Positions 3,101-36,508 of a stretch of 64,000 nucleotides of DNA are shown in pieces. The DNA comes from Dehalococcoidia bacterium (GTDB lineage Bacteria > Chloroflexota > Dehalococcoidia > Lucifugimonadales > UBA3495): contig OY762444.1 of assembly GCA_963665735.1 (NCBI GenBank), forward strand, positions 1,068,231 through 1,132,230, given 5' to 3'. Each line of letters opens with the position of its first letter. Position 1 is the stretch's first letter. The notes beneath the pieces were generated by a model, which was given only the letters and a program-made list of their open reading frames with translations, was not told the origin of the DNA and ran no database searches. A program made the position numbers and the translations under genes.

Positions 3101-3711
3101 ACAATGACGCGCTGGCCTACATCGGGCGCGACGGGCAGAGCATCACCGAGTCGCCTATCGAAATCCTGGCGGCCGCCCAGTGCCACCCAAATACGGTAGC
3201 CTATCCCCGGCAAGAGGAACACCACGAACTGGTTACGGCAGGGGCCAGACATATCGCCCAGCAAGCGCGCAACATCGGTGGTCAGTTGGGCCGGCCCAGC
3301 AGCGCGCGCTATCGCGCCTACAACCGCCTGAAGGAATACGCCGAGAGTATCAAAGGCCAGTTGTTCGACAGCGAAGATCTGCGCCAGGCCATCAACGACA
3401 TCTACCGCTACCCACTGCGCCAATCCGCCGTGGATACCCTGAATCGCCAGATGCGGAGCGGGATTGATGACGCCGGCCTGGCTCAACTGGCAGTCCAGAT
3501 GCGGAGCGAAGACCGGCTGTGCCTAATGGAACCGGAGGAAACCGAAATCCAGGAGCCGCGCATCATCTGCTCTTTGGGGCTGTTTGAGAATCGGCATAGC
3601 CTACCAGGTCCGATGCGGCAGGAACGAGACTCTCTCGGGATAGTAACGGTCTCGACAGGGCGCGAAACGTCATGGAGCAGGGACGAAATCTATAATGACG
3701 ATGGCCGGTGA
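193..3711 (+). CDS. PLD-family (HKD) nuclease domain fused to SNF2-type helicase
   Basis: 1172-aa ORF with a TTG start 5 nt after AGGAGG. N-terminal HKD-like motif LHAKLYLL...GYLGSSNLT. Helicase motifs VGLGKTL (I), IIDESHNLRN (II) and QRAGRVDRIGQ (VI). Confidence 0.9.
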   Translation: MPRIFDNLSPDTKLAPALRETLALSKRADFCVGYFNLRGWGDLAPYVDNWDPEDGQCRVLIGMHRLPNSELREFLALRDNPPGMDNATAHRIRTQLAEQLRQQLVYGLPTNADERALRGLAEQLRGKRVIVKLFLRHTLHAKLYLLFRDDPNNPITGYLGSSNLTFAGMSQQGELNIDVLDHDATYKLRKWFEDRWNDRFCVDITDELLKIIEESWARPDLIPPYHVYLKMAYHLSNEARAGIEAFKVPTVFGNRLFEFQTAAVKIAAHHLNRRNGVMVGDVVGLGKTLVATALARIFEEDLGTQTLIICPKNLVPMWEQYRDDYGLRARVLSISRVLGELPNLRRYHQVIIDESHNLRNRDGKRYRAIREYISENESKCILLSATPYNKTYHDLSNQLRLFISEEQDLGIRPEQMLRDMGEGEFRRQHQANPRSLAAFEMSHHPDDWRDLMRLYMVRRTRSFVQEHYAETDPETGRRFLTFEDGNRSYFPARVPKTVGFAVNDSDPNDQYARLYAPATVDVIGSLSLPRYGLGNYVLDNPETPPTTTEERQIQNLARAGKRLMGFCRTNLFKRLESSGDAFMQSVERHALRNYVFLHALRNGLPIPVGTQDAEMLDSRFTDEDVEEAQGEFADREDEGEQETEEDNLNDDFGPSHRTPETFRERAARIYQEYEVRYHRRFTWMRHDMFRPELETALQKDADALIALLHNNGSWKPENDTKLAALEELITKSYPDRKMIVFSQFADTVRYLENELKSRGVTALASVTGESADPTATAWRFSPVSNDKRQSTEPQHELRVLIASDVLSEGQNLQDCAIVINYDLPWAIIRLIQRAGRVDRIGQTAEEILCHSFMPSDGVERIINLRGRVRERLRQNAEVIGTDEAFFEDDPDDQPIINLYNERAGILDGDVDSEVDLTSYAYQIWKNAITAAPGLEKAVTTLPDVVFSSRQHDGGSSHPEGVLVYLRTAEDNDALAYIGRDGQSITESPIEILAAAQCHPNTVAYPRQEEHHELVTAGARHIAQQARNIGGQLGRPSSARYRAYNRLKEYAESIKGQLFDSEDLRQAINDIYRYPLRQSAVDTLNRQMRSGIDDAGLAQLAVQMRSEDRLCLMEPEETEIQEPRIICSLGLFENRHSLPGPMRQERDSLGIVTVSTGRETSWSRDEIYNDDGR

Positions 3712-4043: not shown

Positions 4044-7000
4044 ATGCAAGTACAGGTTAACGAACTCCGCACCTACCTACAGTCCTTTGACTTTCCTCGG
4101 CTGTTCGTAGAGGGCCTGGGCTGGGACTACTATCAGGCGGAGCCGCTGGCGCTGACCGTTGAAAGCCATAAATATCTGCTCAAACCCGTGGCGGAAAAGG
4201 CGGGGTTCGGCGTCTTTGAGTGCGCCCCGGGCCCGGAGGGCGCTATTCCCGACTACCCGGCGCGGCGCAGGATTGAGACCGAAGTCGCCAAGCGCGTCTT
4301 TGAGCACCTGATAATCTTCGTGGATGCCCAACGTACCCGGCAAGTCTGGCAGTGGGTCAAGCGGGAGGCCGGCAAGCGGGCTACCTGCCGGGAGCATCAA
4401 TTCCATACGGGCCAGACCGGGCTGCCACTGTTGCAACGTCTCAACGACTTCATCTTCACGCTGGAGGATGAGGTCAAGGGCATCGGCATAGGCGACGTTG
4501 CTCGGAACGTCGGCAAGGCTTTTGACGTGGAGAAAGTCACCAGGCGTTTCTATGACCGATTCAGGACGGAGTTAACCGCTTTCGGCAACTTTATCGAGGG
4601 CATCACGGCCCAGGGCGACCGTGACTGGTACGCCTCCCTGATGCTCAACCGCATGATGTTCGTTTACTTCATCCAGAAAAAGGGCTTCCTGGACGACGAC
4701 ACCGACTATCTCCGCAACAAGCTGGACCAGGTGCGATGGGAACGCGGACAAGGGAAGTTTCAACTGTTCTATTATGAATTTTTGCGGCGGCTGTTCCACG
4801 AGGGCTTGGGCCAGCCGAAGGCCCGGCGCTCCCCGGACCTAGAAAAACTGCTCGGCAAGGTGCCTTTCCTCAACGGCGGTTTGTTTGACGTTCACGACCT
4901 GGAGCGGGACAACCCGGATATCGCCATCCCCGACGAAGCCTTTGAACGGGTCTTCGACTTCTTCGACAGCTACCGCTGGCACCTGGACGAGCGGCCCTAC
5001 CGGGAGGACAACGAGATTAACCCCGACGTGCTGGGCTACATCTTCGAGAAGTACGTCAACCAGAAGCAGATGGGCGCCTACTACACCAAGGAGGACATCA
5101 CTGGCTATATCTCCCGCAACACCGTCATTCCTTTCCTGTTCGATGCCGCGAAGAAGGAGTGCCCCGTGGCCTTTGGGCCGGAGGGCGGCGTCTGGCGTCT
5201 GCTGCAAGACGACCCGGACCGCTATATCTACCCTGCCGTCGGCCACGGCATCGCCTGGAACGCCCGGCAGCCGGAGGCCCCGGCGCGCCTGGACTCTCCT
5301 TTTGACCTGCCCGAGGACATTGCCGCCGGCGTCAACGACGTTTCCCGCCGCGGCGGCTGGAATGCCCCGGCTCCCGAGGAATATGCCCTGCCCACCGAGA
5401 CCTGGCGGGAGGTGGTCGCCCGCCGCGCCCGCTACCACGAAGTCCGGGACAAGCTGGCGGCCGGGGAAGTCTCCGAAGTCAACGACCTTATCACCCTGAA
5501 CCTGGACCTGGAGCGATTCGCCAGGGACGTTATCGCGCTGAGTGAAGGCTCAGACCTCTTGACCGCCTTCTGGCGCTCCCTCTATGGCAACCGGGAACGC
5601 ACCGACGCCGGAATCTCCGTTCTCGACCCCACCTGCGGCTCCGGCGCGTTTCTGTTCGCCGCCCTCAACATCCTGGAACCCCTTTACACCGCCTGCTTGG
5701 AGGGGATGCGGGGCTTTCTGGACGATATGGAACGGTCGGCGCGTCCCCGAAATCCCAACCGGCTAAGTCACTTCCGCGACGTTCTGGCGCAAGTGGAAAA
5801 GCACCCCAACGAGCGCTACTTCATCCTGAAGTCCATCGTCCTCAACAACCTTTACGGCGTGGACATCATGGAAGAGGCGGTAGAAATCTGCAAGCTGCGC
5901 CTTTTCCTGAAGCTGGCGGCCCAATTGGAGAGCTATGACCGGATTGAACCGCTGCCGGACATTGACTTCAACATCCGGGCCGGTAACACCTTGGTGGGGT
6001 TTACGTCGCTGGACGCGGTGAGCCGGGCCATGACCATTACCGAGACTCAAGACCGGCCCAGGCCCGAAGTGCGCCGCGCCGTGCGGGGCCAGCAAATTCG
6101 ATCCCTGGATGAAGAGCAGCAGGAAGCCTTGCAGCGCATTGAAGACAAAGGCAGGGAAATCGCCCGGGAGTATGGGCTGTTTCAATGGATACAGACGACT
6201 TTCGGAATGGACGCCGCCAGGTTGGCCCAGTCCAAGCGAGACCTGCGGGACAAGCTGAAGGACCTGGGCGGCGAACTGGACGCCCTGCTGTCCAAAGAGT
6301 ACGGCGTTGACCCGAAGAAAGCCGCCGCTTACGACGCCTGGCGGGCCAGTCACCGGCCCTTTCACTGGTTCGTGGAGTTCTACGGGATTATGAGCCGGGG
6401 CGGTTTTGACGTTGTGATTGGAAACCCGCCTTACCTTGAGTTTAAAGAAGTTGACTACCAGATGCGTGGGTATGCTTGCCTTGACACTAGAGCTATCCAT
6501 GCGCTCTGCATTGAGCGCAGTGCTACCCTGATTGACAAACTAGGTTGCATGAGCATGATTGTTCCACTTGCTCTGCCATCTACCCAACGTATGAAAGCCG
6601 TGCAAGACATACTGGAGGTAGGATATCGCAACGTGTGGTATGGGAACTTCGCTTGGCGACCAGCCAAGTTGTTCGACACAGTGAACCGAGCTTTGACCAT
6701 TTTCACCGTGACACCTTCGGAAAGTCCCCAATCCTCGTCCACGGCCTATCAGAAATGGACGAGCGATTCCAGGGAAGGTCTATTCGACCTAATCAACTAC
6801 GAACAGGTTCCCCGCGATAGGCTGGCGTTCTGGGTTCCCAAAATTGGCACAACCTTGGAACATTCGATATTGAAAAAGCTCATATCAATTCCTACCTCGG
6901 TAGCGGACTTTGTGGGCAAAACTGACCATCGTATCTTCTATCGAACCACGGGAGGGCTTTATTGGAAGGTATTTACTGATTTTGCGCCCGCTTTCTCCGT

Positions 7001-7427
7001 CAATGGGCGGGTTGGGAGATCGAGCCGTGAGACAAACTTCTCTGTGCGGCACCGCGATCAGGCTAAGCCAATCATTGCCTCGCTCAGCAGCGATGTCTTC
7101 TGGTGGTGGTATACAATCACATCCAACCTGCGTGATATGAACCCCACTGACATCAACGGATTTCCTATCCCCGAATCCATATTTTCTGATGTGCAGTTGG
7201 CAGAATTGGGTGGCCGCTATTTGGACAGCCTACAAGCCAACAGTCGCATGATGACGCGGCACCAGAAACAGACTGGCACGACAGAAACCCAATCGTTCGT
7301 GATAAAAGAATCCAAGCCCATCATTGACGAGATAGACCGGGCGCTGGCGGAGCATTACGGGTTTACGGAAGAGGAGATGGACTTCATCATCAACTACGAC
7401 ATCAAGTACCGCATGGGGCGGTCTTGA
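4044..7427 (+). CDS. N6-adenine DNA methyltransferase, Eco57I/type IIG-like, with a large C-terminal (probable target-recognition) region
   Basis: 1127-aa ORF. SAM-binding motif VLDPTCGSGAFLF and catalytic motif VIGNPPYLE. The N-terminus (FPRLFVEGLGWDYY) is typical of large single-chain R-M methylases. Confidence 0.9.
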   Translation: MQVQVNELRTYLQSFDFPRLFVEGLGWDYYQAEPLALTVESHKYLLKPVAEKAGFGVFECAPGPEGAIPDYPARRRIETEVAKRVFEHLIIFVDAQRTRQVWQWVKREAGKRATCREHQFHTGQTGLPLLQRLNDFIFTLEDEVKGIGIGDVARNVGKAFDVEKVTRRFYDRFRTELTAFGNFIEGITAQGDRDWYASLMLNRMMFVYFIQKKGFLDDDTDYLRNKLDQVRWERGQGKFQLFYYEFLRRLFHEGLGQPKARRSPDLEKLLGKVPFLNGGLFDVHDLERDNPDIAIPDEAFERVFDFFDSYRWHLDERPYREDNEINPDVLGYIFEKYVNQKQMGAYYTKEDITGYISRNTVIPFLFDAAKKECPVAFGPEGGVWRLLQDDPDRYIYPAVGHGIAWNARQPEAPARLDSPFDLPEDIAAGVNDVSRRGGWNAPAPEEYALPTETWREVVARRARYHEVRDKLAAGEVSEVNDLITLNLDLERFARDVIALSEGSDLLTAFWRSLYGNRERTDAGISVLDPTCGSGAFLFAALNILEPLYTACLEGMRGFLDDMERSARPRNPNRLSHFRDVLAQVEKHPNERYFILKSIVLNNLYGVDIMEEAVEICKLRLFLKLAAQLESYDRIEPLPDIDFNIRAGNTLVGFTSLDAVSRAMTITETQDRPRPEVRRAVRGQQIRSLDEEQQEALQRIEDKGREIAREYGLFQWIQTTFGMDAARLAQSKRDLRDKLKDLGGELDALLSKEYGVDPKKAAAYDAWRASHRPFHWFVEFYGIMSRGGFDVVIGNPPYLEFKEVDYQMRGYACLDTRAIHALCIERSATLIDKLGCMSMIVPLALPSTQRMKAVQDILEVGYRNVWYGNFAWRPAKLFDTVNRALTIFTVTPSESPQSSSTAYQKWTSDSREGLFDLINYEQVPRDRLAFWVPKIGTTLEHSILKKLISIPTSVADFVGKTDHRIFYRTTGGLYWKVFTDFAPAFSVNGRVGRSSRETNFSVRHRDQAKPIIASLSSDVFWWWYTITSNLRDMNPTDINGFPIPESIFSDVQLAELGGRYLDSLQANSRMMTRHQKQTGTTETQSFVIKESKPIIDEIDRALAEHYGFTEEEMDFIINYDIKYRMGRS

Positions 7428-11421: not shown

Positions 11422-11847
11422 ATGCTCGACCACACAGAGGACATTCCTATGCCTACATTCCGCGATTACGAGTTCGAAGGGCACAACCTGTCGCACCAGG
11501 AACCCCACGTCCGCGGCCTAGGCTACGGCCAGTACTCAGACGCCCTGGAAATCGACCCTACCGACCGTCAACGTTTCAGCGAACTGGCCGACCGATGGGA
11601 AGAAGAAACCATCTTCTTGTCCAACTCAGAACGGGCCGTCGCCCACCCCGCCCACCAGGAAATCATCAGCATGGGCGAGCCAGTGGTTCAGCTAGTTCTG
11701 GAGCGGATGCGTTCCCAAGGGGGCCACTGGTTTGAAGCATTGCAACGGATAACGGGAGAAGACCCAGTATCGCCGGCCGACTACGGCAACATTGCAGCGA
11801 TGCAGAATTCCTGGCTGCAATGGGGCGAAGACAATGGATACGCTTAG
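11422..11847 (+). CDS. Hypothetical protein
   Basis: 141-aa ORF whose stop overlaps the start of the next gene. Confidence 0.65.
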   Translation: MLDHTEDIPMPTFRDYEFEGHNLSHQEPHVRGLGYGQYSDALEIDPTDRQRFSELADRWEEETIFLSNSERAVAHPAHQEIISMGEPVVQLVLERMRSQGGHWFEALQRITGEDPVSPADYGNIAAMQNSWLQWGEDNGYA

Positions 11848-12286
11848 GTGGATGACATGGCTGAATATGTCGTTCCCCAAACTTCGCGACGAAGGATTCA
11901 CCGTAATAGACCCGCCATCAGACCTTTACAACTGCATAGCGTACGTCGCGGGAGATGCAAGCCAATGGTGGGATCATACAACCCGCCGCTATTGGCCATC
12001 CTACGCGATGAGGTCTGAGCGAATTGAAAGCCTGATTGAAGTATTCGCAGGGTTGGGCTTCGAGCGATGCAACGACAGTCAAGTCGAGGACAGCTATCAA
12101 GAAGTAGCGCTGTACGAAGAGCAGGGATTATGGACCCACGCTGCGCTACAAATGCCCAACGGACTATGGCGCAACAAGATGGGCCGAGGACCGTTAATCG
12201 AACACCTCAACCCGGAGTCGCTTTCCAGAGGACCGTACGGAGATCCCGCCGTCTTTATGCGAAGGACCTTGGACTTGACCCAATGA
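11834..12286 (+). CDS. Hypothetical protein with a Cys/His (papain/NlpC-like?) signature
   Basis: The internal ATG at 11834 overlaps the upstream stop. YNCIAYVAG and WTHAA could form a catalytic Cys/His pair. This is inference only. Confidence 0.65.
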   Translation: MDTLRWMTWLNMSFPKLRDEGFTVIDPPSDLYNCIAYVAGDASQWWDHTTRRYWPSYAMRSERIESLIEVFAGLGFERCNDSQVEDSYQEVALYEEQGLWTHAALQMPNGLWRNKMGRGPLIEHLNPESLSRGPYGDPAVFMRRTLDLTQ

Positions 12287-12305: not shown

Positions 12306-13787
12306 ATGAAGAATGAATTCTTTGAGAAAATCCTCAACGCAGAAGAGGGCAGGCCATTCAACACGACCGTCTCCAGTAATGGGGATGAATTCGATACCAT
12401 CGCACAAATATCAGAAGGTGAAGAAGGCGAGCTTAACGTCACGTTGCAATCGTACATAGGCCCGTTTTTGGATTCAAACGATACCGAAACGACAATGATC
12501 CTCCCAACGCTGCCGAGATTCCGGCTCGACCCAAGCTCTTACGACATCACGAGTGACAAGACTGGAAGAAAAGTCCCCTTGTACTTGGGAGGTGGTCCAC
12601 AGGTTTTAGGTCCAGGTATTGAACACCAAAGGGTAATTGACGGCAGAAATATAAGCCTAGCAGAACCAGTAAGGGCAAAGACCCTAACCCTGTGGTACGA
12701 GGGAATCTGGGCGGAAGACTGGCGCACTAATTCAGACAAACAGCAAGTCACCATTTCCCACGAAGATTTCGCAGTTTCTAAAGTCCCTCCGCACGGCACA
12801 AACAACTTCTTCATTGAAATCACCAAGCCAACGCCAGGGAAACCTTCAATTGAATGGGACATCAGCGATACCTTTCAGGGAGTTATTGTCCGAACCGACA
12901 AGGGCAAGCCATTCGTAAAAGTCGCAATAGCTCCAGCAAACGGCCGGGATATAACGTGGGGCGATTACATAGCTAGAATCGAGGCAAAACACGAAGACCT
13001 TGAGATAAAAGACATCGTCTTACACATCTGGCGAACTGACGAATCCGAAATGGACCTAGAAGCAATCACAGCATTGGAGAAGACCATCAGCTACAGCCTA
13101 TCGTTTATGAACAGTGCTTGGTGCAGGCCAAAGGTAGCCATTGCATGGAGAGAAACTTGGTCCGACTCGGTTTGGCGCGGAACATGGGTGCCAGTATGGG
13201 GCGCATGGCAAACTACCCGGCCGACAAAGCAGGACCGGAATAAGAACTGGATGCCCATAGTGACAAACGCCGAAAAAGTGCTGGAGCAAGTGTTAAGGAA
13301 CATCAGGAAAGACCACCACCCCGTGATAGAACGGTACGTGCATAACACTATGGCTCTGGACAGAGGAGATTGGACAAGCTCAGTCACCGCATCGGTGGCT
13401 ATCCTCCAAAGGCTGGCTATAGATTCTGGTTTCAGGATTGAACGCAGGGGCCTAGAACTGTGGGATGGCATAGCCAAGTATCTGAGGTCTAAAGCAGTTG
13501 AGAGGCCTTACTACTACATAGGATGGGGAGAAGAAGCCAGGCATCTCATTGAGATGGGAGAACCTCACGACCACTTGGTGAAAGCAATAACCGAACTGCG
13601 AAACCGAGTAACAGCGCACTGGGTAAATGAACCTTCCGACAACGCAAGTTGGCTGGGACAACAAGCTGTTTACTACGTGGAATCCGCCCTGCACGCTGAA
13701 CTTGCTCCGAAAGTTCCAATGTGGGACAGAACCAGAGCATCCCACCACCCACCCAAGTCGGACCCGTCAGAGGAAATAGAGAAATAG
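12306..13787 (+). CDS. Hypothetical protein
   Basis: 493-aa ORF with non-repetitive composition. No motif recognised. Confidence 0.75.
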   Translation: MKNEFFEKILNAEEGRPFNTTVSSNGDEFDTIAQISEGEEGELNVTLQSYIGPFLDSNDTETTMILPTLPRFRLDPSSYDITSDKTGRKVPLYLGGGPQVLGPGIEHQRVIDGRNISLAEPVRAKTLTLWYEGIWAEDWRTNSDKQQVTISHEDFAVSKVPPHGTNNFFIEITKPTPGKPSIEWDISDTFQGVIVRTDKGKPFVKVAIAPANGRDITWGDYIARIEAKHEDLEIKDIVLHIWRTDESEMDLEAITALEKTISYSLSFMNSAWCRPKVAIAWRETWSDSVWRGTWVPVWGAWQTTRPTKQDRNKNWMPIVTNAEKVLEQVLRNIRKDHHPVIERYVHNTMALDRGDWTSSVTASVAILQRLAIDSGFRIERRGLELWDGIAKYLRSKAVERPYYYIGWGEEARHLIEMGEPHDHLVKAITELRNRVTAHWVNEPSDNASWLGQQAVYYVESALHAELAPKVPMWDRTRASHHPPKSDPSEEIEK

Positions 13788-13804
13788 CCAATTTGAGGAT
13801 AGCC

Positions 13805-13845
13805 AAGGGGCAATTTCAAGGGTCGCCGATACCGAAATTGCCCTT
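13805..13845 (+). terminator. Stem-loop after the 12306 gene (no U-tract)
   Basis: GGGCAATTTC (13808-13817) pairs perfectly with GAAATTGCCC (13834-13843) around a 16-nt loop. It starts 18 nt after the stop codon. Confidence 0.3.
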
Positions 13846-14132
13846 CTCGACAAGCCACAGCCGATATGCTTTGGCAAAGAAGATAGTCAGACTTAGTCAA
13901 AGCCCAGTCGCATTACACCAAGTGACCAGACCGGCCGGGGATTAAAGCTAGACTCACCCCAACCCACTCCTTGAGTAGTAAGAACTACCTGGCAGAAGGG
14001 AGGAATTTCCTCCGCATCCCACGCCAAGGATGGGTTGAAGTTTCCAAATCACCCCCAGTTCAAACGAAACGCAACAGCTTCCCACGCGCCAAAAACGGTC
14101 CGGCCCCAGCGCTGAAACCCAGGACAAGAAAG

Positions 14133-14498
14133 ATGCCCAACTCCATCCGCCGCCTCTGCATCATCCACTTCCAGTGCCCCCTCTGCGGCCTGGACCACGA
14201 CGACCAGATCTACGTCACCATCCCCGCCGACAACCTGGACGAGTACGTCGCCCGGCTCAGGACCTTCGCCCGGGACTGGGAATCCATCGAGTCCAACCTG
14301 ACCGAGGCCGTCATCCGGTTTCACCGGGAGCAGGGAGACCTGGACCGGCTCACGGAGCGGGACGGCAGGTACGGCCTCCACGAAACCCGGCCACCGACTC
14401 TGGGCCTCACCCCCGAAAGCGAATACACCTGCGCCGACTGCGGTCAGGTGTTCGAGAGCAACCCCCTGCTGCAGGAACACATGAAGTCTTCCCACTAG
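14133..14498 (+). CDS. Small protein with a C-terminal C2H2-type zinc finger
   Basis: Internal ATG at 14133. N-terminal CPLCG and C-terminal YTCADCGQVFESNPLLQEHMKSSH (C-x2-C-x12-H-x4-H). Confidence 0.6.
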   Translation: MPNSIRRLCIIHFQCPLCGLDHDDQIYVTIPADNLDEYVARLRTFARDWESIESNLTEAVIRFHREQGDLDRLTERDGRYGLHETRPPTLGLTPESEYTCADCGQVFESNPLLQEHMKSSH

Positions 14499-14533
14499 CC
14501 GGCATCAGGAAACCACCTCAAAGGATACGGAAA

Positions 14534-15010
14534 ATGGCATACGGAACGGCCCGGGTGGTCGCCTGGGCGCACTCTGAAAAGGAAGCCGAGAACCTGGTAA
14601 GAAACTACGTCGACGCGAAGATGGACCAAGCGGACAACATCGGTCAGACCCTGGCCTGGCTGCCCATTGAGTACGACGACGAAACGGAAAGGTTCGGCAG
14701 ATTGAGAGCCGGCGACAAACGGGGCGGGATAGACGCGCTGGAAGAAGCCATGCGCAACGGACGGGAAACCAGGCCCGTCAGGACGGAAATCGACGGGGAC
14801 GGAGGCTACCTGGCCACGGCGCAAGTCCTCGGCGCCTGTATAACGGTAGAGGACAGGTGCTACATCTGTAAGAAGATGATGTGCCTGGGCTGCCAGAACG
14901 TCGGGCTGATCCAGGCGCGTCCGCAGGGCGATGAACGAATCTGCTGCCGGGAGTGTCACGACACATTCCGGGAATTGATGCCGGACCGGCGCCCGCAACA
15001 GGACGGGTAA
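14534..15010 (+). CDS. Hypothetical Cys-rich protein, paralogue copy 1 (MAYGTARVV family)
   Basis: 158 aa, clearly homologous to 15355-15819. Shared segments: MAYGTARVVA, GQTL(A/T)WLP(I/L)EYDDETERFGR, C-x-IC...CLGCQ(N/D)VG...CC..C.DTFRE(L/M)MP. Confidence 0.7.
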   Translation: MAYGTARVVAWAHSEKEAENLVRNYVDAKMDQADNIGQTLAWLPIEYDDETERFGRLRAGDKRGGIDALEEAMRNGRETRPVRTEIDGDGGYLATAQVLGACITVEDRCYICKKMMCLGCQNVGLIQARPQGDERICCRECHDTFRELMPDRRPQQDG

Positions 15011-15027
15011 CTGCGGGAGGACCCAGT

Positions 15028-15121
15028 CCCCGACCCCGAAAGCAAGTACACCTGCAACCACTGGGGGCGGGTGTTCGAGGCCAATCCCCTGTTGCGAGAC
15101 CACATGAAGTCCGCCCAATAG
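15028..15121 (+). pseudogene. Decayed copy of the C2H2 zinc-finger 3' end
   Basis: PDPESKYTCNHWGRVFEANPLLRDHMKSAQ-stop aligns with LTPESEYTCADCGQVFESNPLLQEHMKSSH-stop of 14133-14498. The second Cys and last His are lost, and there is no upstream ORF body. Confidence 0.5.
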
Positions 15122-15354
15122 CCGCCGACCCCGCAGGAATCCCCCTGCCGGTGAACCCGATGCGAAACGCCCCAACCTCCAACCCCGGGGAATCCCATCC
15201 CCATTGCCTCCAATCCCAACCGGACCGGGAACAAGCATAACGCGCCGAATCCGGCGCCGAACTCCCCAAGCCGGCCCCGCGGCTGCTGGACGAACCCGCC
15301 GGGTCCGTGGAACACTGTACCCGGCAAGACCCCCCCTGAACAAGGAGAAGAGAA

Positions 15355-15819
15355 ATGGCCTACGGAACTGCCCGGGTCGTCGCCCGCGCGGAATCGGCCG
15401 CCAGGGCCGAGAGCCTGGTCAGGAATTACATCAACGAGCAGATCGACTACGCCATCAGCATCGGCCAGACCCTGACCTGGTTGCCCCTCGAGTACGACGA
15501 CGAAACCGAAAGGTTCGGACGCATCGACGCCGGCGACGCCCAGGCCGGCCTGGACGCCCTCTACGACGCCGAGTACGCCGGGAAGGAGACCAAGCCCGTC
15601 AACATCGAAGACGCCGGGGGCGGGGTCTCCCTGGCCACCGCCCAGATCGGAGGCTCATGCCTGACCATCGACGGCAAATGTCACATCTGCGGGGAGGTAC
15701 TGTGCCTGGGCTGCCAGGACGTGGGAATGATCATGGTGGTCCCCGGGGAGCGGGAACAGCTCTGCTGCGACAAGTGCCGGGACACCTTCCGGGAAATGAT
15801 GCCCGGCATCCCCAGGTGA
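15355..15819 (+). CDS. Hypothetical Cys-rich protein, paralogue copy 2 (MAYGTARVV family)
   Basis: 154-aa ORF after the RBS GGAGAAGAG. Paralogue of 14534-15010. Confidence 0.7.
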   Translation: MAYGTARVVARAESAARAESLVRNYINEQIDYAISIGQTLTWLPLEYDDETERFGRIDAGDAQAGLDALYDAEYAGKETKPVNIEDAGGGVSLATAQIGGSCLTIDGKCHICGEVLCLGCQDVGMIMVVPGEREQLCCDKCRDTFREMMPGIPR

Positions 15820-15916
15820 GGGAAGGGGACGAAACCATACGGAAAGTTCCCAAGTTAAACTGCAACCAGCCCACCCCGTGGAAGACTCTTACTGAAACCC
15901 AACAAAGGAAACCTAT

Positions 15917-16471
15917 ATGACCACCCTGGCCGCCTACGACAACCCCCACCTGGAAACCCTTCCCCACCACATACGCCGGGAGTTATTCCCCGACAGCCAA
16001 CCCGGAGACCACCCGGAACTGGAAAACGTCCTGCTGCCGGAACTGGCCGGAAAACTGCGCCGGGACCTGCTGGAACGCCGGAGAAGGGCCGAGGAAGACC
16101 TGGCCCTGGCCCGGAGCCACGCAGTGGAAACCCTGGGCAGCGAAGGAATCGACGAAGACGGGAAACTGACCCCCACCAGACGGAACACTCCCGTGGGCCG
16201 GGCCTACGAAACCGCGAGGGAACGGGCGCGAACCCTGACCCACGACCCGGAGAGCGCCGAGGCCCTGGTATTCCTCCACCTGAACCGGTTCTTCTTCGGC
16301 CTGGGAGACACGTCGTCGGGAGAACTCCGGGAGAAACTGGACACCTACCTGAAGGACAGGGCGCTGCACCTGGATACCTTGGCGGAACAGGGTGAATACT
16401 TCATCCAAGTGGCCCTGGCCGTCCGGGACCTGGGCCGGAGGATAATCGACTTCGTGGAGGAGCACAGGTAA
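15917..16471 (+). CDS. Hypothetical protein
   Basis: 184-aa ORF. Confidence 0.6.
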   Translation: MTTLAAYDNPHLETLPHHIRRELFPDSQPGDHPELENVLLPELAGKLRRDLLERRRRAEEDLALARSHAVETLGSEGIDEDGKLTPTRRNTPVGRAYETARERARTLTHDPESAEALVFLHLNRFFFGLGDTSSGELREKLDTYLKDRALHLDTLAEQGEYFIQVALAVRDLGRRIIDFVEEHR

Positions 16472-16585
16472 TAAACGCGCAGCTCGCCCCAACCTGGGAC
16501 GTTCAATTCGCCAACGTGGTTATTCGTGTGGAAGGGATGTTCAACCAGGGAATCCGCCACCAAAAACACCAAGCAGGGGTGAGAA

Positions 16586-16993
16586 ATGTCCCAAGAGAAC
16601 CTGATGGATTCAATCCGGGCACGGAAACTGGTCCACGCTCACCAGGATCACACAATACGCGGGACCGCGGCGATAATGGCCCAGAGCGACTTCTCACAGG
16701 TCCCAGTTCTCAGACACGACGGAACCCTGGAATTCGTAGTCACCTGGGAAGTGATAGCCGCAGGAATGATGAGTGGAACATCCGCGGATGCCAAAATCAG
16801 TGACCTGGCCATCATCGCTAACCTGTCGCAGCAGACCTACCAAATCTTCGAGCTTACAGGGAACGACGAGAAGGACGAAAATACAATAAGGGAACGGCTG
16901 AAGATAATCCCCTACGTGCTGATAAAGACAGGAATCGGAGCAATCCCATTCATAAATTCAATAGCGACGTTGTGGGACCTAGCCACACGTTAA
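16586..16993 (+). CDS. Hypothetical protein, possibly a single CBS-like domain
   Basis: 135-aa ORF. The segment TIRGTAAIMAQSDFSQVPVLRHDGTLEFVVTWEVI resembles a CBS motif. Confidence 0.55.
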   Translation: MSQENLMDSIRARKLVHAHQDHTIRGTAAIMAQSDFSQVPVLRHDGTLEFVVTWEVIAAGMMSGTSADAKISDLAIIANLSQQTYQIFELTGNDEKDENTIRERLKIIPYVLIKTGIGAIPFINSIATLWDLATR

Positions 16994-17044
16994 TCCCGTA
17001 AACAAGCCAAGAAACGTCAAAGAGGTCGAACACCCCCAAACCGA

Positions 17045-17073
17045 TTGACCGGCCCCAAACCCCGTGTTATCCT
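17045..17073 (+). promoter_or_regulatory. Candidate sigma70-type promoter (TTGACC-N17-TATCCT)
   Basis: TTGACC at 17045-17050 and TATCCT at 17068-17073, with an exact 17-nt spacer, in an ORF-free gap. Confidence 0.3.
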
Positions 17074-17197
17074 GAAAGAGAAATGAAACGCCAAGACCTC
17101 CATAACCACCGCCGTCCCACGTGCGGCATGAACCCTGAGCCGGGAGACCCACCCGACTCGTAGAGAACTGCACCCACCGCAAACCCGCACCAGACGA

Positions 17198-17242
17198 GGC
17201 GGGAAGTTCTCCGAAACAGGGAAACTTCCCGCCCTTATTTTT
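17198..17242 (+). terminator. Rho-independent terminator
   Basis: 11-bp perfect stem GGCGGGAAGTT / AACTTCCCGCC (17198-17208 / 17223-17233) followed by CTTATTTTT. Confidence 0.6.
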
Positions 17243-17332
17243 CCCCATAATGAAAACCGGGCCGGGGCGCCCCCGCCGTAGGGCCGTCGCGCCCCGTCAC
17301 CCCACCAAAAAATCCAGCAAGGCGGACCAACC

Positions 17333-18967
17333 ATGACCTACCTCACCAGAATAGTCACCGATCCCGTTCCCCAGGACGAACCCCTGGACGAAAGACAGGT
17401 TCCCAACAGCGCCGGGGGCTACTCCTACCCGGTGGACGACTTCACCCGGCTGGGCCGGTTCCTCATCCTCGGCTCCGAGGGGGGCAGCTACTACGCCGGG
17501 GAGCGGCAGCTCACCCTGGAAAACGCCGCCGCCGTCAAGCGCTGCGTGGAACGGGACGGCGAGCGGACCGTCACGGAAATCATGGACGTCATCCGCCAGG
17601 GAAGGGCTCCGAAGTCCGGCCCGCCCCTGTTCGCCCTGGCCGTCGCAACCGCCCACGGCAGCGAGGACACCCGGAAGCTGGCCCTGGAACAGGTTCCCGA
17701 CGCCGCTTCCACCGCCAGCCAGCTGATGCAGTTCGTCCAGTACGCCGACACCCTGCGGGGCTGGGGCCGGGGGCTGAGAAACGTCGTCGCCAACTGGTAC
17801 CTGGAAAAGACCCCGGAACAGGTGGCCTACCAGGCGGTCAAGTACCGCCAGCGCTACGGCTGGACCCACCGGGACCTGCTCCGCAAGTCCCACGCCGACA
17901 CTCCGGACATCAACCCCGACCTGCGGGAAGTTTTCCAGTGGGTCACTCACGGCGATCTGCCGGCGGAGCAAGGCGCTCTTGGCGTCATCCACGCCTACGA
18001 GCAGGCCAAGACCGCCGATGCGAAAACCCTGGCCGCCCTCATCCGGGAAAACCGCATGAGCTGGGAGATGGTCCCCGCCGAGATGCTCCAGGAGAAGGAG
18101 GTCTGGCAGGCCCTCTACGAGGATATGCCCCTGGTGGCCACCGTCCGCAACCTGGCAACCCTGACCCGGGTGGGCGTCATCGCCCCCATGCAGTTCGACC
18201 GCGCCGTGGAAACCATCGGCCGGATCGGCCGGGACGACCGGAGCCGGATACATCCCATCCAGGTGCTCTCGGCCCTGGCGACCTACCGCTCCGGGAAGGG
18301 GCAGCGGGGTAACAATACCTGGACGCCGGTACCCCAGGTGACGGAGGCCCTGGACGCCGCCTTCGAGCGTTCCTTCCAGCACGCTCCCCAAACGGGGAAG
18401 AGGTTCTACCTGGCGGTGGACGTCTCCGGCTCCATGAGCTACGGGCAGATAGCCGGGGTGCCGGGACTGACCCCCAGGGAAGCGGCGGCCGCCATGGCCA
18501 TGGCGATTGCCCGCCGGGAGCCCAACCATTACATCGCCGGATTCTCCCGGTCGGACGGCTCATACCGCGGGGCCATGATGGCGTCCCTGGACATCACCGC
18601 CGGGGACAGCCTGACCGACGCCATGAGGAAAACGGAAGAGATGCCCTTCGGCGGCACCGACTGCGCCCTGCCGATGATGGATGCCCTGGACAAGAAAATC
18701 CCGGCGGACTGCTTCGTTGTCCTGACCGACGGCGAGACCTGGGCCGGCAAGATCCACCCCGCCGAGGCGCTGCGGAAGTACCGCCGGGAGATGGAAATCC
18801 CAGCCAAGCTGGTGGTGGTGGGCATGGTCTCCAACGGGTTCACCATCGCCGACCCGGAGGAAGCCGGGATGCTGGACGTGGTGGGCTTCGACGCCGCCGC
18901 GCCCCGGATCATCGCCGACTTCGCCGGGAGCGACAAAAGAGACGTTGGGGAAGAAGAAATGGAATAA
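17333..18967 (+). CDS. rsr: Ro60-related protein Rsr (TROVE domain plus vWA domain)
   Basis: 544-aa ORF. The N-terminus (QVPNSAGGYSYPVDDFTRLGRFLILGSEGGSYYAGE) is typical of TROVE/Ro60. The C-terminal MIDAS motif is LAVDVSGSMS. Y-RNA-like genes follow directly. Confidence 0.9.
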   Translation: MTYLTRIVTDPVPQDEPLDERQVPNSAGGYSYPVDDFTRLGRFLILGSEGGSYYAGERQLTLENAAAVKRCVERDGERTVTEIMDVIRQGRAPKSGPPLFALAVATAHGSEDTRKLALEQVPDAASTASQLMQFVQYADTLRGWGRGLRNVVANWYLEKTPEQVAYQAVKYRQRYGWTHRDLLRKSHADTPDINPDLREVFQWVTHGDLPAEQGALGVIHAYEQAKTADAKTLAALIRENRMSWEMVPAEMLQEKEVWQALYEDMPLVATVRNLATLTRVGVIAPMQFDRAVETIGRIGRDDRSRIHPIQVLSALATYRSGKGQRGNNTWTPVPQVTEALDAAFERSFQHAPQTGKRFYLAVDVSGSMSYGQIAGVPGLTPREAAAAMAMAIARREPNHYIAGFSRSDGSYRGAMMASLDITAGDSLTDAMRKTEEMPFGGTDCALPMMDALDKKIPADCFVVLTDGETWAGKIHPAEALRKYRREMEIPAKLVVVGMVSNGFTIADPEEAGMLDVVGFDAAAPRIIADFAGSDKRDVGEEEME

Positions 18968-18969
18968 TT

Positions 18970-19110
18970 CCGGGGACGGGTCGACGCCGTCGGGTTATTT
19001 GGAACGTATAGGGCGCGGGTTCGATTCCCGCCGTTCTCCCCCAGGGGGGAGCGTAGCTCAGTGGCAGAGCGGTGCGACAGCCCCGGCGACACCACCCCAT
19101 CCGTCCCCGG
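18970..19110 (+). ncRNA. Y RNA-like gene 1 (YrlA-type, with permuted tRNA-like domain)
   Basis: Terminal helix CCGGGGACGG (18970-79) / CCGTCCCCGG (19101-10). Inside are a T-arm GCGGG-TTCGATT-CCCGC, a CTCCCCC/GGGGGAG hairpin and a D-arm GCTC-AGTGGCA-GAGC. GGGTTATTT follows the 5' strand and ACCCCATCCG precedes the 3' strand. Confidence 0.8.
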
Positions 19111-19166
19111 CGAATCTTTCTTCAACCGCACCCCCAACGTGGGGGAGACATCAGAAACAGGAAAAA

Positions 19167-19236
19167 CCCCGGCGGGTCGAAGACGGTGGGTTATTCTCCA
19201 ATAGTAACCCCATCGCCAATCACCCATCCGCCGGGG
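19167..19236 (+). ncRNA. Y RNA-like gene 2 (short form, no tRNA-like domain)
   Basis: Terminal helix CCCCGGCGG (19167-75) / CCGCCGGGG (19228-36). It shares GGGTCGAAG, GGGTTATT and CACCCATCCGCC with the other modules. The interior is a simple hairpin. Confidence 0.65.
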
Positions 19237-19262
19237 AAGTGTCAAAATCAATAGAGACCGCC

Positions 19263-19401
19263 GGCGCGGGCGGGTCGAAGTTCTCGGGTTATTTGGAACG
19301 CGCAGGCCGTGGGTTCGAGTCCCACCTCCCGCATCTTGCGGGAGTAGCTCAGTGGTAGAGCGGCGCGAAACTCCGGGGGCGCCAACCCATCCGCCCGTGC
19401 C
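19263..19401 (+). ncRNA. Y RNA-like gene 3 (YrlA-type, with permuted tRNA-like domain)
   Basis: 11-bp terminal helix 19263-73 / 19391-401 with one G-U pair. T-arm GTGGG-TTCGAGT-CCCAC, hairpin CTCCCGCA-TCT-TGCGGGAG and D-arm GCTC-AGTGGTA-GAGC. Confidence 0.8.
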
Positions 19402-19425
19402 AGCGGAATAAGGAAACAGGACCAC

Positions 19426-19569
19426 GGACCCCGGGCGGGTCGAAGTTGACAGGTTATCCACTCATAGATGGAGAGACGCGGGTTCGAGTCCCGCCTCCCC
19501 CCGGCGGGGGGAGTAGCTCAAAGGCAGAGCGCTTGAACCCTGCCGGCAACCCCCATCCGCCCGGGGTCC
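19426..19569 (+). ncRNA. Y RNA-like gene 4 (YrlA-type, with permuted tRNA-like domain)
   Basis: 13-bp perfect terminal helix GGACCCCGGGCGG / CCGCCCGGGGTCC. T-arm GCGGG-TTCGAGT-CCCGC, hairpin CTCCCCCC-GGC-GGGGGGAG and D-arm GCTC-AAAGGCA-GAGC. Confidence 0.8.
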
Positions 19570-19588
19570 CAGGATAAAAAGGAAGAGA

Positions 19589-19654
19589 CCCCGGCGGGTC
19601 GATGATGACGGGTTATTTTGGTTAACCCCGTTGCCGCCAACCCATCCGCCGGGG
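19589..19654 (+). ncRNA. Y RNA-like gene 5 (short form)
   Basis: Terminal helix CCCCGGCGG (19589-97) / CCGCCGGGG (19646-54). GGGTCGATG, GGGTTATTTTGG and CAACCCATCCGCC are conserved. Confidence 0.65.
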
Positions 19655-19682
19655 CCAATAACCAGAGGAGGGACAACCGGGC

Positions 19683-20147
19683 ATGAAGGATAAAAGCAAA
19701 ATCCCGACGCTTTTCCGGGAACTGGACCTGAACTTCAGGAACATCACTGCCATCCCCGTCATCGCCCTCGTCTACTACTACATCGCAGTGCAGGCCAGGG
19801 AACTGGCCGGGGGAGACGTTCCCGAAAACCCGGTAATGGCATCCGTCACGCTGCTCCTCGCCTCCCTGCATAACCACAGCCTCACCCGGAACGTCCTGAT
19901 GGACAAGATCTTCACCGTCATTGCCCTCACCGCCACGACACTGGCCCTGTTCTTCCTGGGCGCCGCTTTCCCCTTCGCCATGGCCGAGGGAAAACCGGTA
20001 GTTCTCGCAATCATGGCCCTCTCCCTCGGAATGACCGTGTGGAACCTGGTCCTGGCGGTGAATGAAAGGCGGAATCCGTCCGTTCCAAAACAACCGAAAG
20101 AGGAAAACCATGCAACGGAACCGGGAAGCGTTTCTCCATCATCCTGA
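19683..20147 (+). CDS. Hypothetical membrane protein
   Basis: 154-aa ORF after GAGGAGGG, with several hydrophobic helices (ITAIPVIALVYYYIAV, LALFFLGAAFPFAMA, VVLAIMALSLGMTVWNLVLAV). Confidence 0.6.
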   Translation: MKDKSKIPTLFRELDLNFRNITAIPVIALVYYYIAVQARELAGGDVPENPVMASVTLLLASLHNHSLTRNVLMDKIFTVIALTATTLALFFLGAAFPFAMAEGKPVVLAIMALSLGMTVWNLVLAVNERRNPSVPKQPKEENHATEPGSVSPSS

Positions 20148-20784
20148 ACCCCGCGAAACTCCCAACCCCCAAGCCATGGCCGCTGCGGAGGCCGCCGCCG
20201 AAGCCCTCCGCCGGGCTGCGCTGACCCAGACCCGGGAGATGATAACCGAGGAGGCCCGGGCGTCGGCTTACATCGAGAGCGAGTACGACGAGGAAGAAAT
20301 CGCCCGCCACGCCGGGGCCTTGGAGTCCTACCTGCTGGAACCCAAGGGCCAGGACGAGGAGAGCCTGCTCCTGGACCTGCACCGGCGGATGATGCGAAAC
20401 CAGGCCCACGCCCAACCGGGCCGGTACCGCACCTTCGGAGTCACCATCGGGGACTGGAGGCCGCCGGGAGCCGGACTGGTTCCGGCGCTGATGCGAGAAT
20501 TTCACGACGGGGGATGGCGGAGAGCCGGCGGCCAGGACGGGGATGCCGCAGCCCGGGCCATCCGGGCCCACGTCCACTTCGAGACCGTCCACCCCTTCGC
20601 CGACGGCAACGGAAGAACCGGCCGGGCATTGCTGCAGCGGATGCTGGGAACCCGCATCCCCATCAGCCCCTTCATCCTGCGGGAACGGTGGGAATACTAC
20701 CGGCTGTTCGAGGAAGGCGACTGGTCCGATTGGGTCTTGTGGCTGAGCCGGGGCATCGTGGAACAGGCCGGAAGTAACCGCTAG
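20110..20784 (+). CDS. Fic/DOC family protein (AMPylase-type active site)
   Basis: Canonical Fic motif HPFADGNGRTGRALL. The start is ambiguous between 20062 and 20110; 20110 was chosen to limit overlap with the upstream ORF. Confidence 0.85.
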   Translation: MQRNREAFLHHPEPRETPNPQAMAAAEAAAEALRRAALTQTREMITEEARASAYIESEYDEEEIARHAGALESYLLEPKGQDEESLLLDLHRRMMRNQAHAQPGRYRTFGVTIGDWRPPGAGLVPALMREFHDGGWRRAGGQDGDAAARAIRAHVHFETVHPFADGNGRTGRALLQRMLGTRIPISPFILRERWEYYRLFEEGDWSDWVLWLSRGIVEQAGSNR

Positions 20785-35401: not shown

Positions 35402-35545
35402 CCGGGAGGGAGTTGGTACTGACGCTGCGGGAGAGAAGAAACGGCCCCGGGTAGGTTATTCTTCCCCCCACCCCGGCGGCGGCTTTTTGGGCGCCCGGTG
35501 TCGCCCGCCGCCGGGGAGACAAGAAGAAAGGGGGAGAGACCGGCC

Positions 35546-36508
35546 ATGAGTCCAATGACCCTCCGCGAGAAGCCCGCCAGGACAATCCTCAACCCCGCCA
35601 ACGGTTTCATCGGCGAGTACGACTACACCCTCAATCCCTACGCCGGCTGCGCCTTCGGCTGCGGCTACTGCTACGCAGCCGCCTTCACCCAGAAGAACGC
35701 GCCGGCCGGCGCATCCTGGGGCCGGTGGGTCGACGTCAAGACCAACGCGCCCCTCCTGGCGCAACAAGCCGTGTCCCGAAAAGAACTGGACGGGAAGACC
35801 GTCTACATGAGCTCCGTCACCGACCCCTGGCAGCCGGCGGAGAAAACCCACCGCGTCACCCGCCGCATCCTCCAGGCCATGGCCAAGGCCAGGAACTTCG
35901 GACTGACCCTCCAGACCCGCAGCCCGATGGTCGCCGAGGACCTGGAATACATCGCCGCCGTAGCCCAGGGCGAGGGCAACGAAATCCAGGTCAACGTGAC
36001 CGTCTCCACCGACGACGAGGAGGTACGCCGGGTCATCGAAGCCACCTGCCCGCCCACCGAGGCCAGGGTGGAGGCCTTGGAAATCATCGCCCAAGCCAAC
36101 GTGGAGAACCTCCACGCCTGCTTCACGCTGACGCCGCTATTGCCGCTGCGCGACCTCAAAGGGTTCGCCCAAAGGCTGTTGGCCACCGGGGTGAGGAGAT
36201 TCATAATCCAGGAAACCCACGACACCACGCCTTCGGCCATCGGCAACCTGAAGGCCGTCACCCGGGACACACTGCCGGAGCAGCTGGCCCGGCTGTACGG
36301 CATCCCGGTGGAAAGGGTCCACGCCCGCTACCGGAGGGAGTACGAGGAGAACGCCCGGATCCTGACGGCGGAGCTGACCCGGGACCCCGACATGAAGCTG
36401 GGGTTCGGAAGAAAGGGTTTCGGGCTGCCCTTCGAGAACCGGACCGGGTGGCATTCTCCCCGGAACCGGCCCGAGTACACCAAGGCGACGTCGAGAAATT
36501 GGAGATAG
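35546..36508 (+). CDS. Radical SAM protein (SplB / DNA-repair-photolyase-like family)
   Basis: NPYAGCAFGCGYCYA carries the CxxxCxxC cluster. Start at the internal ATG after AAAGGGGGAGAG. Confidence 0.8.
   Translation: MSPMTLREKPARTILNPANGFIGEYDYTLNPYAGCAFGCGYCYAAAFTQKNAPAGASWGRWVDVKTNAPLLAQQAVSRKELDGKTVYMSSVTDPWQPAEKTHRVTRRILQAMAKARNFGLTLQTRSPMVAEDLEYIAAVAQGEGNEIQVNVTVSTDDEEVRRVIEATCPPTEARVEALEIIAQANVENLHACFTLTPLLPLRDLKGFAQRLLATGVRRFIIQETHDTTPSAIGNLKAVTRDTLPEQLARLYGIPVERVHARYRREYEENARILTAELTRDPDMKLGFGRKGFGLPFENRTGWHSPRNRPEYTKATSRNWR

Follow-up and report, generated by a model that had tools for sequence, protein, structure and literature searches.

Which RNAs, if any, are encoded by the five similar modules that directly follow the gene for a Ro60 orthologue (rsr) in a Dehalococcoidia bacterium, and how do they relate to the Y RNAs known from other organisms? 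The locus lies on contig OY762444.1 of assembly GCA_963665735.1, within a stretch of 64,000 nucleotides (positions 1,068,231 to 1,132,230) that was analysed as a whole and is here called the window; coordinates refer to this window unless a related locus is named. As set out below, it is very probably an rsr operon in which the gene for the Ro60 orthologue is directly followed by five Y-RNA genes. The system is of a known kind and is represented here by a divergent and enlarged example that has escaped annotation and the size of which is matched or exceeded in relatives. Standard annotation misses the array: no Rfam match reaches the gathering score and a spurious open reading frame (ORF) is placed on top of it.

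The identity of the ORF at 17333-18967 as rsr, first proposed from the letters alone, is confirmed by Pfam (vWA_Ro60, 1.3e-61; TROVE, 2.6e-37) and by alignment with structurally characterized proteins. The product consists of a TROVE ring of HEAT repeats, followed by a von Willebrand factor A (vWA) domain with the DVSGSM motif of the metal ion-dependent adhesion site (MIDAS), and is covered over its full length. Residues 12-532 align to Rsr from Deinococcus radiodurans (PDB 2NVO) with 399 bits, and the scores against human (9NEN) and Xenopus Ro60 (1YVP) are 378 and 362 bits, respectively. The MIDAS residues D363, S365 and S367 and the DVSGSM motif are invariant among 18 homologues. The nearest Rsr relatives stem from metagenome-assembled genomes (MAGs) of Dehalococcoidia and share 55-70% identity with the protein.

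The first-pass annotation had described five co-oriented modules (M1 to M5) behind rsr, each closed by a terminal helix, and this layout was found as described. All five lie on the plus strand, 2-690 nt past the rsr stop codon; the helix of M1 begins at 18970, after a gap of 2 nt, and the following gaps measure 56, 26, 24 and 19 nt. These spacers are A/purine-rich and too short for promoters of their own, and neither a promoter-like nor a plus-strand terminator-like site is found between the modules. All terminal helices listed are present, with ten of ten pairs formed in each module in a stem test; the M1 strands 18970-79 and 19101-10 are perfect complements. The proposed common motifs, GGGTCGA[C/A/A/A/T]G, GGTTAT and, on the 3' side, CCCATCCG, likewise occur in all five modules, and the distance between GGGUCGA(N)G and GGUUAU is exactly 15 nt in every case. 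In RNA form, the 3'-strand element common to the five modules is CCCAUCCG. The sequence UUAUC is complete in M4 only, the other four copies reading UUAUU. From these features a common scaffold is predicted, in which a lower stem of 10-13 bp is formed by the module's own 5' and 3' ends and its 5' strand, GGG(U/C)-C-GA(N)G, carries a bulged C opposite CA(U/C)CCG. Above the lower stem, an internal loop and a covarying upper stem would follow, with GGUUAU(C) at the start of the loop.

Two structural classes share this scaffold. M1, M3 and M4 are assigned to the YrlA type, their loop being predicted to hold a tRNA-like domain in permuted order. All three contain, one after the other, the T arm, the acceptor-like hairpin and the D arm, in agreement with the initial description: a T arm with a 5-bp stem and a TTCGANT loop (e.g. 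GCGGG-TTCGATT-CCCGC) is directly followed by a closed acceptor-like hairpin of 8-9 bp, then by TA (UA in the RNA) and the D arm, GCTC-N7-GAGC. RNAs of the YrlA class are bound and stabilised by Rsr and modified by TruB and DusA. The comparison with Rfam covariance models that had been suggested as a check gave a divided result, as YrlA matches were returned on exactly M3 (39.8 bits, E 3.8e-7), M4 (34.8 bits) and M1 (34.6 bits, E 1.2e-5) but none of these reached the curated threshold; they are the best sub-threshold matches. In M2 and M5, T arm, acceptor-like hairpin and D arm are indeed absent and only a loop of few nucleotides is found in their place. Without the tRNA-like domain these two are therefore not YrlA; they represent the minimal, or stem-bulge, type of Y RNA and correspond to YrlB and Yrn2. 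M2 combines an 11-bp lower stem, the bulged C, an internal loop and an upper stem with a UUAU loop.

The strongest support comes from comparison with other rsr loci. A set of 127 was assembled, comprising 43 from species-representative genomes, four obtained by contig look-up and 80 from viral contigs; among the four look-up loci, L044 re-covers L003, and L045 and L046 carry the same array. A scanner requiring the 5' motif, the UUA motif and the closing helix gave 160 matches on the rsr strand and six on the opposite strand in these loci plus the window (92 versus two in the window and the 47 genome and metagenome loci, 68 versus four in the viral loci). On the plus strand of the window it returned exactly M1 to M5 and nothing else in 64 kb. 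Because of this strand bias and the exact recovery of the five sites, the pattern is not due to chance. Two covariance models of our own, R1 based on M1, M3 and M4 and R2 based on M2 and M5, detect modules beside rsr in most of the 47 related loci, almost always on the rsr strand (R1 scores 145 bits against M1, which is one of its own source sequences). Elsewhere in the window they yield only two weak matches, on both strands, at 35467-35520 and 43804-43866 (E 0.4-0.8).

Covariation is most evident in A6, for which 31 short modules of several phyla were aligned with MAFFT; this alignment folds into the two expected helices with the lower stem 98% paired. Two-sided, compensatory changes are present in eight of the ten lower-stem pairs, including a clean switch from U-A (19 sequences) to C-G (12 sequences) at the base beside the bulge. 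The covariation score of 0.757 compares with 0.254 for shuffled alignments, none of 500 of which reached it, and with 0.14-0.18 for slid registers. For the long modules, the corresponding MAFFT alignment (A7, 22 sequences) is out of register at the acceptor-like hairpin and the 3' end; the arms were therefore checked sequence by sequence. A first regular expression for the T and D arms was too strict and missed most modules. T stems covary between modules (GCGGG/CCCGC, GUGGG/CCCAC, GGAGG/CCUCC, GCUGG/CCAGC, CCAGG/CCUGG), the D stem is invariant, and the acceptor-like hairpins, although unrelated in sequence, all form 5-9 bp; of the 18 copies in which all three arms were found, 16 have 7-9 bp. 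The three long paralogues of the window alone show compensatory changes in 12 of 45 predicted pairs. On this comparative footing, we regard as established the predicted scaffold, the fact that it is conserved and its link to rsr and to the strand of rsr. The features of the locus and its surroundings are collected in Table 1.

Table 1. Predicted features of the rsr locus and of its surroundings in the window; the last three rows refer to related loci.
Feature	Position	Strand	Remarks
HKD(PLD)+Snf2 helicase	193-3711		adjoins type IIG restriction-modification enzyme; defence gene pair
Type IIG restriction-modification enzyme	4044-7427		PADLOC 1010 bits
DUF7689 protein	11792-12286		
175-aa ORF, C-terminal eukaryote-type C2H2 zinc finger	13971-14498		Pfam zf-C2H2 28.8 bits; uncommon in bacteria
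rsr (Ro60 orthologue), 544 aa	17333-18967	+	from ORF list; stop codon TAA 18965-18967
M1, long YrlA-type Y RNA, 141 nt	18970-19110	+	YrlA 34.6 bits, full-length alignment
M1, Ro-site motif GGGUCGACG	18978-18986	+	
M1, GGUUAU	18993-18998	+	
M1, T arm	19015-19031	+	
M1, acceptor-like hairpin	19032-19053	+	
M1, D arm	19056-19070	+	
M1, 3' strand CCCAUCCG	19096-19103	+	
Spacer M1-M2, 56 nt	19111-19166	+	A/purine-rich
M2, short minimal Y RNA, 70 nt	19167-19236	+	fold z-score -4.3; RF01656 27.8 bits
M3, long YrlA-type Y RNA, 139 nt	19263-19401	+	T arm 19309-19325; acceptor-like hairpin 19326-19344; D arm 19347-19361
M4, long YrlA-type Y RNA, 144 nt	19426-19569	+	T arm 19478-19494; acceptor-like hairpin 19495-19513; D arm 19516-19530
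M5, short minimal Y RNA, 66 nt	19589-19654	+	80% identical to M2, 83% to L045a
GGUUAU(C) sites, M1 to M5	18993-18999, 19189-19195, 19287-19293, 19452-19458, 19611-19617	+	
154-aa ORF	19683-20147	+	no family match; 28 nt after M5, behind GGAGG
SoFic-like Fic-domain protein	20062-20784	+	Fic 1.4e-14; PADLOC SoFic 93 bits
TIR-STAND protein, 833 aa	26653-29154		ThsB-like TIR, PDC-S60 NTPase
Radical SAM/DUF5131 protein	35498-36508		
RNA ligase (PF09414)	42739-43395		near PrfH-like factor
PrfH-like release factor, 298 aa	43880-44776		PCRF+RF-1
SIR2-like protein	60478-61548		
RF01656-passing module, locus L045	9977-10045		
RF01656-passing module, locus L029	5786-5849		
RF01656-passing module, locus L039	5654-5719		

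Several observations weigh against the assignment of the locus as an rsr operon with five Y-RNA genes. No Rfam family is found at its gathering score anywhere in the window, and the window modules attain only about half of the 69 bits demanded for YrlA (RF02553), a score that is also unreached by the homologous modules in 24 related loci. With all models below their curated thresholds, support is drawn from the sub-threshold matches together with the covariation in relatives. The E-values of R1 and R2 are rough, the models being built from three and two sequences. Folding z-scores of single modules are modest (-1.2 to -4.3) and the single-sequence fold of M1 is no better than that of shuffled sequences (z -1.2), so that the weight of the evidence is placed on comparative conservation and not on folding energy. 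On the protein side, the NCBIfam equivalog model for Rsr (NF041674) aligns over its positions 3-528 of 531 with 519 bits against a cutoff of 900 bits, and the protein is therefore taken to belong to a divergent Rsr lineage. Finally, the RNA ends, their processing and their binding to Rsr are all inferred, and the window contains no gene for polynucleotide phosphorylase (PNPase) or another effector.

The modules of the window are 73-80% identical to one another and equally close to modules from genomes whose Rsr is only 65-69% identical. The duplications are accordingly taken to be old and retained, which suggests different roles for the paralogues. A recent duplication of a unit of one long and one short module is unsupported, M1 being nearest to M3 and M4 nearest to a module of another genome (L003c, 76% identity; fold z-score of M4 -4.2).

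A possible course of events can be sketched from published work on D. radiodurans, Salmonella and Mycobacterium smegmatis. The array and rsr would be transcribed as one precursor, as judged from the short gaps devoid of promoter-like and terminator-like sites. This precursor may then be cut in the A-rich spacers, by analogy with YrlA and YrlB of M. smegmatis, which were shown experimentally to be cut from one precursor (Chen et al., 2014, PMC4201824). Each mature RNA would bind to the outer surface of the Rsr ring via its lower stem. The tRNA-like modules could tether Rsr to an effector such as PNPase for the decay or repair of structured RNA, and the minimal modules, lacking an effector module, might serve as gates or as competitors. 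With five Y RNAs from two structural classes next to a single Ro60 gene, the locus offers a compact natural set that is convenient for asking whether different Y RNAs provide Ro60 with different partners.

Some side observations concern rsr itself and its immediate flanks. A second Rsr (protein P0001), 94% identical to that of the window (32 substitutions), is on record outside the window, and the genome probably carries two rsr loci, like the MAG OZ253670 (L002 and L003). Upstream of rsr, the stretch 17200-17245, a hairpin CGGGAAGTT...AACTTCCCG with a T-run behind it, resembles the terminator of the preceding gene. The sole promoter-like site found upstream, at 17045-17073, is unlikely to drive rsr because this hairpin and T-run intervene. 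On the other side of the array, the 154-aa ORF and the Fic ORF are both co-oriented with rsr and overlap by 86 nt at the annotated Fic start; the true Fic start may be located further downstream, or a frameshift may be present. Both genes may reside on the same transcript as the array.

The most serious alternative concerns the function of the modules and not their identity. According to it, the tRNA-like modules mainly serve as tRNA decoys in RNA conflict instead of tethering PNPase: they would sequester or inhibit anticodon nucleases or other toxins directed at tRNA, or else bring in enzymes of RNA repair, and the need to counter several toxins would have driven their expansion. It has been proposed that YrlA's tRNA-like domain could inhibit an anticodon nuclease competitively (Hughes et al., 2020, PMC7790460). 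The surroundings agree with such a role, as the rsr locus is embedded in what is a typical defence and RNA-conflict/repair island (0.2-61.5 kb of the window) with genes for HKD+Snf2, type IIG, SoFic-like, TIR-STAND, RNA ligase plus PrfH-like and SIR2 proteins, although many other ORFs of the window match no Pfam family. The RNA ligase and the PrfH-like factor, located 23 kb from rsr, make up a second module for the repair of RNA or ribosomes. Related rsr loci are also situated in defence and RNA-repair islands: the five-module locus L044 has a gene for a PemK/MazF-type toxin upstream (6613-7290), a release-factor gene near rsr and, 4-7 kb downstream (13595-17647), Hen1 methyltransferase and Pnkp kinase-phosphatase-ligase, and L047 has TIR, DndB and UvrD genes as neighbours. 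In the arrays of L018 and L024, moreover, true tRNA-Ser genes are interleaved. On the other hand, the modules lack an anticodon arm, the usual target of anticodon nucleases, the two short modules are left unexplained, and a specific toxin partner is not evident, because no neighbour besides rsr is shared across the 47 loci when 19 ORFs of the window are compared. The sole neighbour matches are weak and partial (78 aa of the Fic protein in L001 and 96 aa of the ORF at 25382-25828 in L005). A fixed protein partner such as RtcB was dropped for the same lack of conserved neighbours, and Rsr and its array behave as a self-contained cassette. Taken together, a mainly decoy function is considered unlikely, albeit worth keeping in mind.

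The second alternative, namely that only the long modules are functional whereas M2 and M5 are processing or insulating hairpins or decayed copies and not ligands of Rsr, is decidedly less probable. M2 and M5 do lack an effector domain and a promoter of their own and stay below the gathering score of every Rfam family. Nevertheless, none of the conserved elements of the Ro-binding stem is missing from them and the spacing is exact, and it is precisely the short modules that display the strongest covariation. Short modules furthermore occur in several phyla and make up some loci by themselves, such as the four in L045, and three homologues pass the gathering score of RF01656. In addition, second Y RNAs of the hairpin type (YrlB, Yrn2) were found bound to Rsr in three of three species studied (PMC4201824).

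It is very improbable that the modules have no present link to Rsr and represent tRNA genes or pseudogenes, or what is left of dimeric tRNA transcripts. In favour of this, their T and D arms come close to the canonical form, YrlA has been proposed to derive from dimeric tRNAs (bioRxiv 10.1101/312249), and the Rfam tRNA model matches 19338-19502 with 34.9 bits. This match, however, is a chimera of the D arm of M3 and the T arm of M4 with an insertion of 111 nt, which arises because the order of the arms is permuted. ARAGORN finds no tRNA or tmRNA gene in the window, in line with the earlier expectation that the modules are not true tRNAs. An anticodon arm is missing, every module is enclosed by the Ro-site stem, and the association with rsr and its strand holds across phyla. 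Further matches obtained in E-value mode to tmRNA, mascRNA, VA, miRNA and snoRNA families are partial, cover a T arm or a generic hairpin only and were rejected. That the region is protein-coding (137-aa plus-strand ORF at 18945-19358, 310-aa minus-strand ORF at 18529-19461) or a generic repeat such as REP, MITE or attC is hardly conceivable: such ORFs exist and the modules are tandem imperfect palindromes, but the GC contents by codon position are flat or non-coding (0.59/0.61/0.62 and 0.54/0.63/0.75 versus 0.66/0.46/0.88 for rsr), which for the 310-aa ORF bears out its earlier dismissal as spurious, compensatory base-pair changes do not fit coding constraint, the scanner detects no other plus-strand copies in the window, and in other genomes the modules adjoin rsr on its strand instead of being dispersed.

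With the locus read as an rsr operon with five Y-RNA genes, the question of its exceptionality can be addressed. According to published work, each species has one or two Y RNAs that were validated, and 355 YrlA RNAs have been predicted across 276 genomes (PMC4201824). The claim of the first-pass annotation that the repertoire is larger than in the model organisms holds insofar as five exceeds their number, but relatives match or exceed it. The supposed regularity of the long-short pattern did not survive comparison, since the order is not conserved: long (L) and short (s) modules are arranged L-s-L-L-s in the window, s-s-L-s-L in the five-module array of L003/L044 (Dehalococcoidia) and s-s-s-s in the metagenomic array of L045/L046. 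Three modules each are present in L001, L002 and L004-L007 (Dehalococcoidia MAGs) and in the metagenome contig L047, three upstream plus three downstream in L039 (Anaerolineae), at least five in L024 (Anaerolineaceae), eight to nine together with two tRNA-Ser genes in L018 (Chloroflexota), and none to three in the loci on viral contigs. Five is accordingly in the upper tail of array sizes, but other arrays equal or surpass it, and arrays of several Y-RNA genes are common in Chloroflexota. True tRNA genes are found in or adjoining the arrays of relatives (L018 7124-7211 and 7341-7427; L024 3438-3524; L021 3189-3656); tRNA-Ser (gct, tga) recurs there, and the window is without tRNA genes. This interleaving is compatible with shared processing and a tRNA-derived origin.

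The most interesting by-product of the analysis is the resemblance of the scaffold to that of animal Y RNAs. RF01656, the Rfam family for nematode stem-bulge RNAs, is the best match for M2 (27.8 bits, E 2.5e-4). Its gathering score of 38 bits is missed by the copies of the window (27.8 bits for M2, 25.6 for M1) and passed by short modules of relatives, with 48.7 bits in L029, 42.6 in L039 and 40.4 in L045. The family covers CeN72-3/CeN74-2, stem-bulge RNAs that have been called Y-RNA homologues (PMC4450293, PMC4726728); their lower stem contains a bulged C, and their loop has a conserved UUAUC at its 5' end (PMC4450293). The RF01656 alignment spans both strands (CGGUCCG...UGGGUUAUC...CACCAACUUGACCG against CGGGUCGA...CGGGUUAUU...CACCAACCCAUCCG), such that both strands of the Ro stem align (CGGUCCG.. 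/ CACCAACUUGACCG against CGGGUCGA.. / C(A/G)CCAACCCAUCCG). The order of elements is that of stem-bulge and vertebrate Y RNAs, the lower stem with its bulged C being followed by an internal loop and then by the upper stem, with UUAUC placed at the loop's 5' end, and the fold predicted for the window comprises a 12-bp stem, a 1-nt bulge, a G-C pair, a loop and an upper stem. The human Y4 segment CCGAUGGUAGUGGGUUAUCA (sequence from PMC5331234) aligns without gaps to a profile of the 5' half of 30 bacterial short modules, with a score that none of 20,000 shuffles reached. When modules were defined by T and D arms alone, GUUA(U/C)C was found no more than 70 nt upstream in 14 of 16 genomic and 21 of 34 viral cases against a background expectation of 3.7%; the test is not circular.

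Differences from the animal RNAs are also apparent. The modules of the window have no U-tail of the RNA polymerase III type and share a bacterial operon with the Ro60 gene, four of the five copies read UUAUU in place of UUAUC, and the vertebrate Y RNA model RF00019 gives no match at E<=10 in 18900-19750 and 19155-19250 or at E<=5 in L045. Bacterial Y RNAs have been stated not to be homologous with the vertebrate clades (PMC4726728). No mention of UUAUC in bacterial Y RNAs was found in a literature search that left several key reviews outside its reach. We put forward tentatively, and with some doubt prevailing, that rsr loci of the Chloroflexota type contain expanded and diversified Y-RNA arrays, with up to about nine members, which keep the complete scaffold of animal Y RNAs at the spacing of human Y4 and the nematode RNAs. 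If this were true, bacterial and animal Y RNAs would be true homologues and not the outcome of convergence, UUAUC would be an ancient element linked to Ro60 and not a eukaryote-specific signal for DNA replication, and the paralogues would allow one Rsr ring to serve several effectors in a response to RNA damage or in defence. In any case, the sharing of UUAUC and both strands of the Ro site bears on the question of a common ancestry of bacterial and animal Y RNAs.

Among bacterial systems, the closest counterpart is YrlA, which is known from Salmonella Typhimurium, M. smegmatis and more than 250 bacteria and phages and is characterized by a GNCGAAN0-1G motif and a position on the rsr strand at most 4 kb from rsr, with two Y RNAs in each species studied (PMC4201824). 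The modules of the window likewise adjoin rsr on the same strand within 4 kb. GUCGAAG in M2, M3 and M4 fits the YrlA motif, and GUCGACG in M1 and GUCGAUG in M5 differ from it at one position. The order of T arm, acceptor-like hairpin, UA and D arm with a near-invariant GCUC/GAGC stem in M1, M3 and M4 is that of YrlA, and the acceptor-like hairpin of at least 7 bp is a likeness to M. smegmatis YrlA, which is cleaved by RNase P. Unlike YrlA, the long modules of the window reach only 35-40 bits where the gathering score is 69, and three paralogous copies are united in one array. In the YrlA RNAs of Salmonella and M. smegmatis, the Ro site is reported to be recognisable by its 5' strand alone (PMC4201824), whereas in the modules of the window the Ro helix can be recognised by both its strands, as can the bulged C and UUAU(C).

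M2 and M5 resemble YrlB and Yrn2 in being short, in lacking a full tRNA-like domain and in lying beside an RNA of the YrlA type and rsr. By description, though not by sequence, they are also like M. smegmatis YrlB, which shares a precursor with its YrlA-type neighbour; they differ from it, with its possible T arm, in having none, and in being present in two copies. The arrangement as a whole is reminiscent of Salmonella's rsr-yrlBA-rtcBA operon, in which the Y-RNA genes are also located directly after rsr and before co-oriented protein genes. In contrast to the Salmonella operon, rtcB, rtcA and rtcR are not part of that in the window; the 154-aa ORF and the SoFic-like Fic gene take the downstream position, and a different RNA ligase (PF09414), accompanied by a PrfH-like factor, is encoded 23 kb away.

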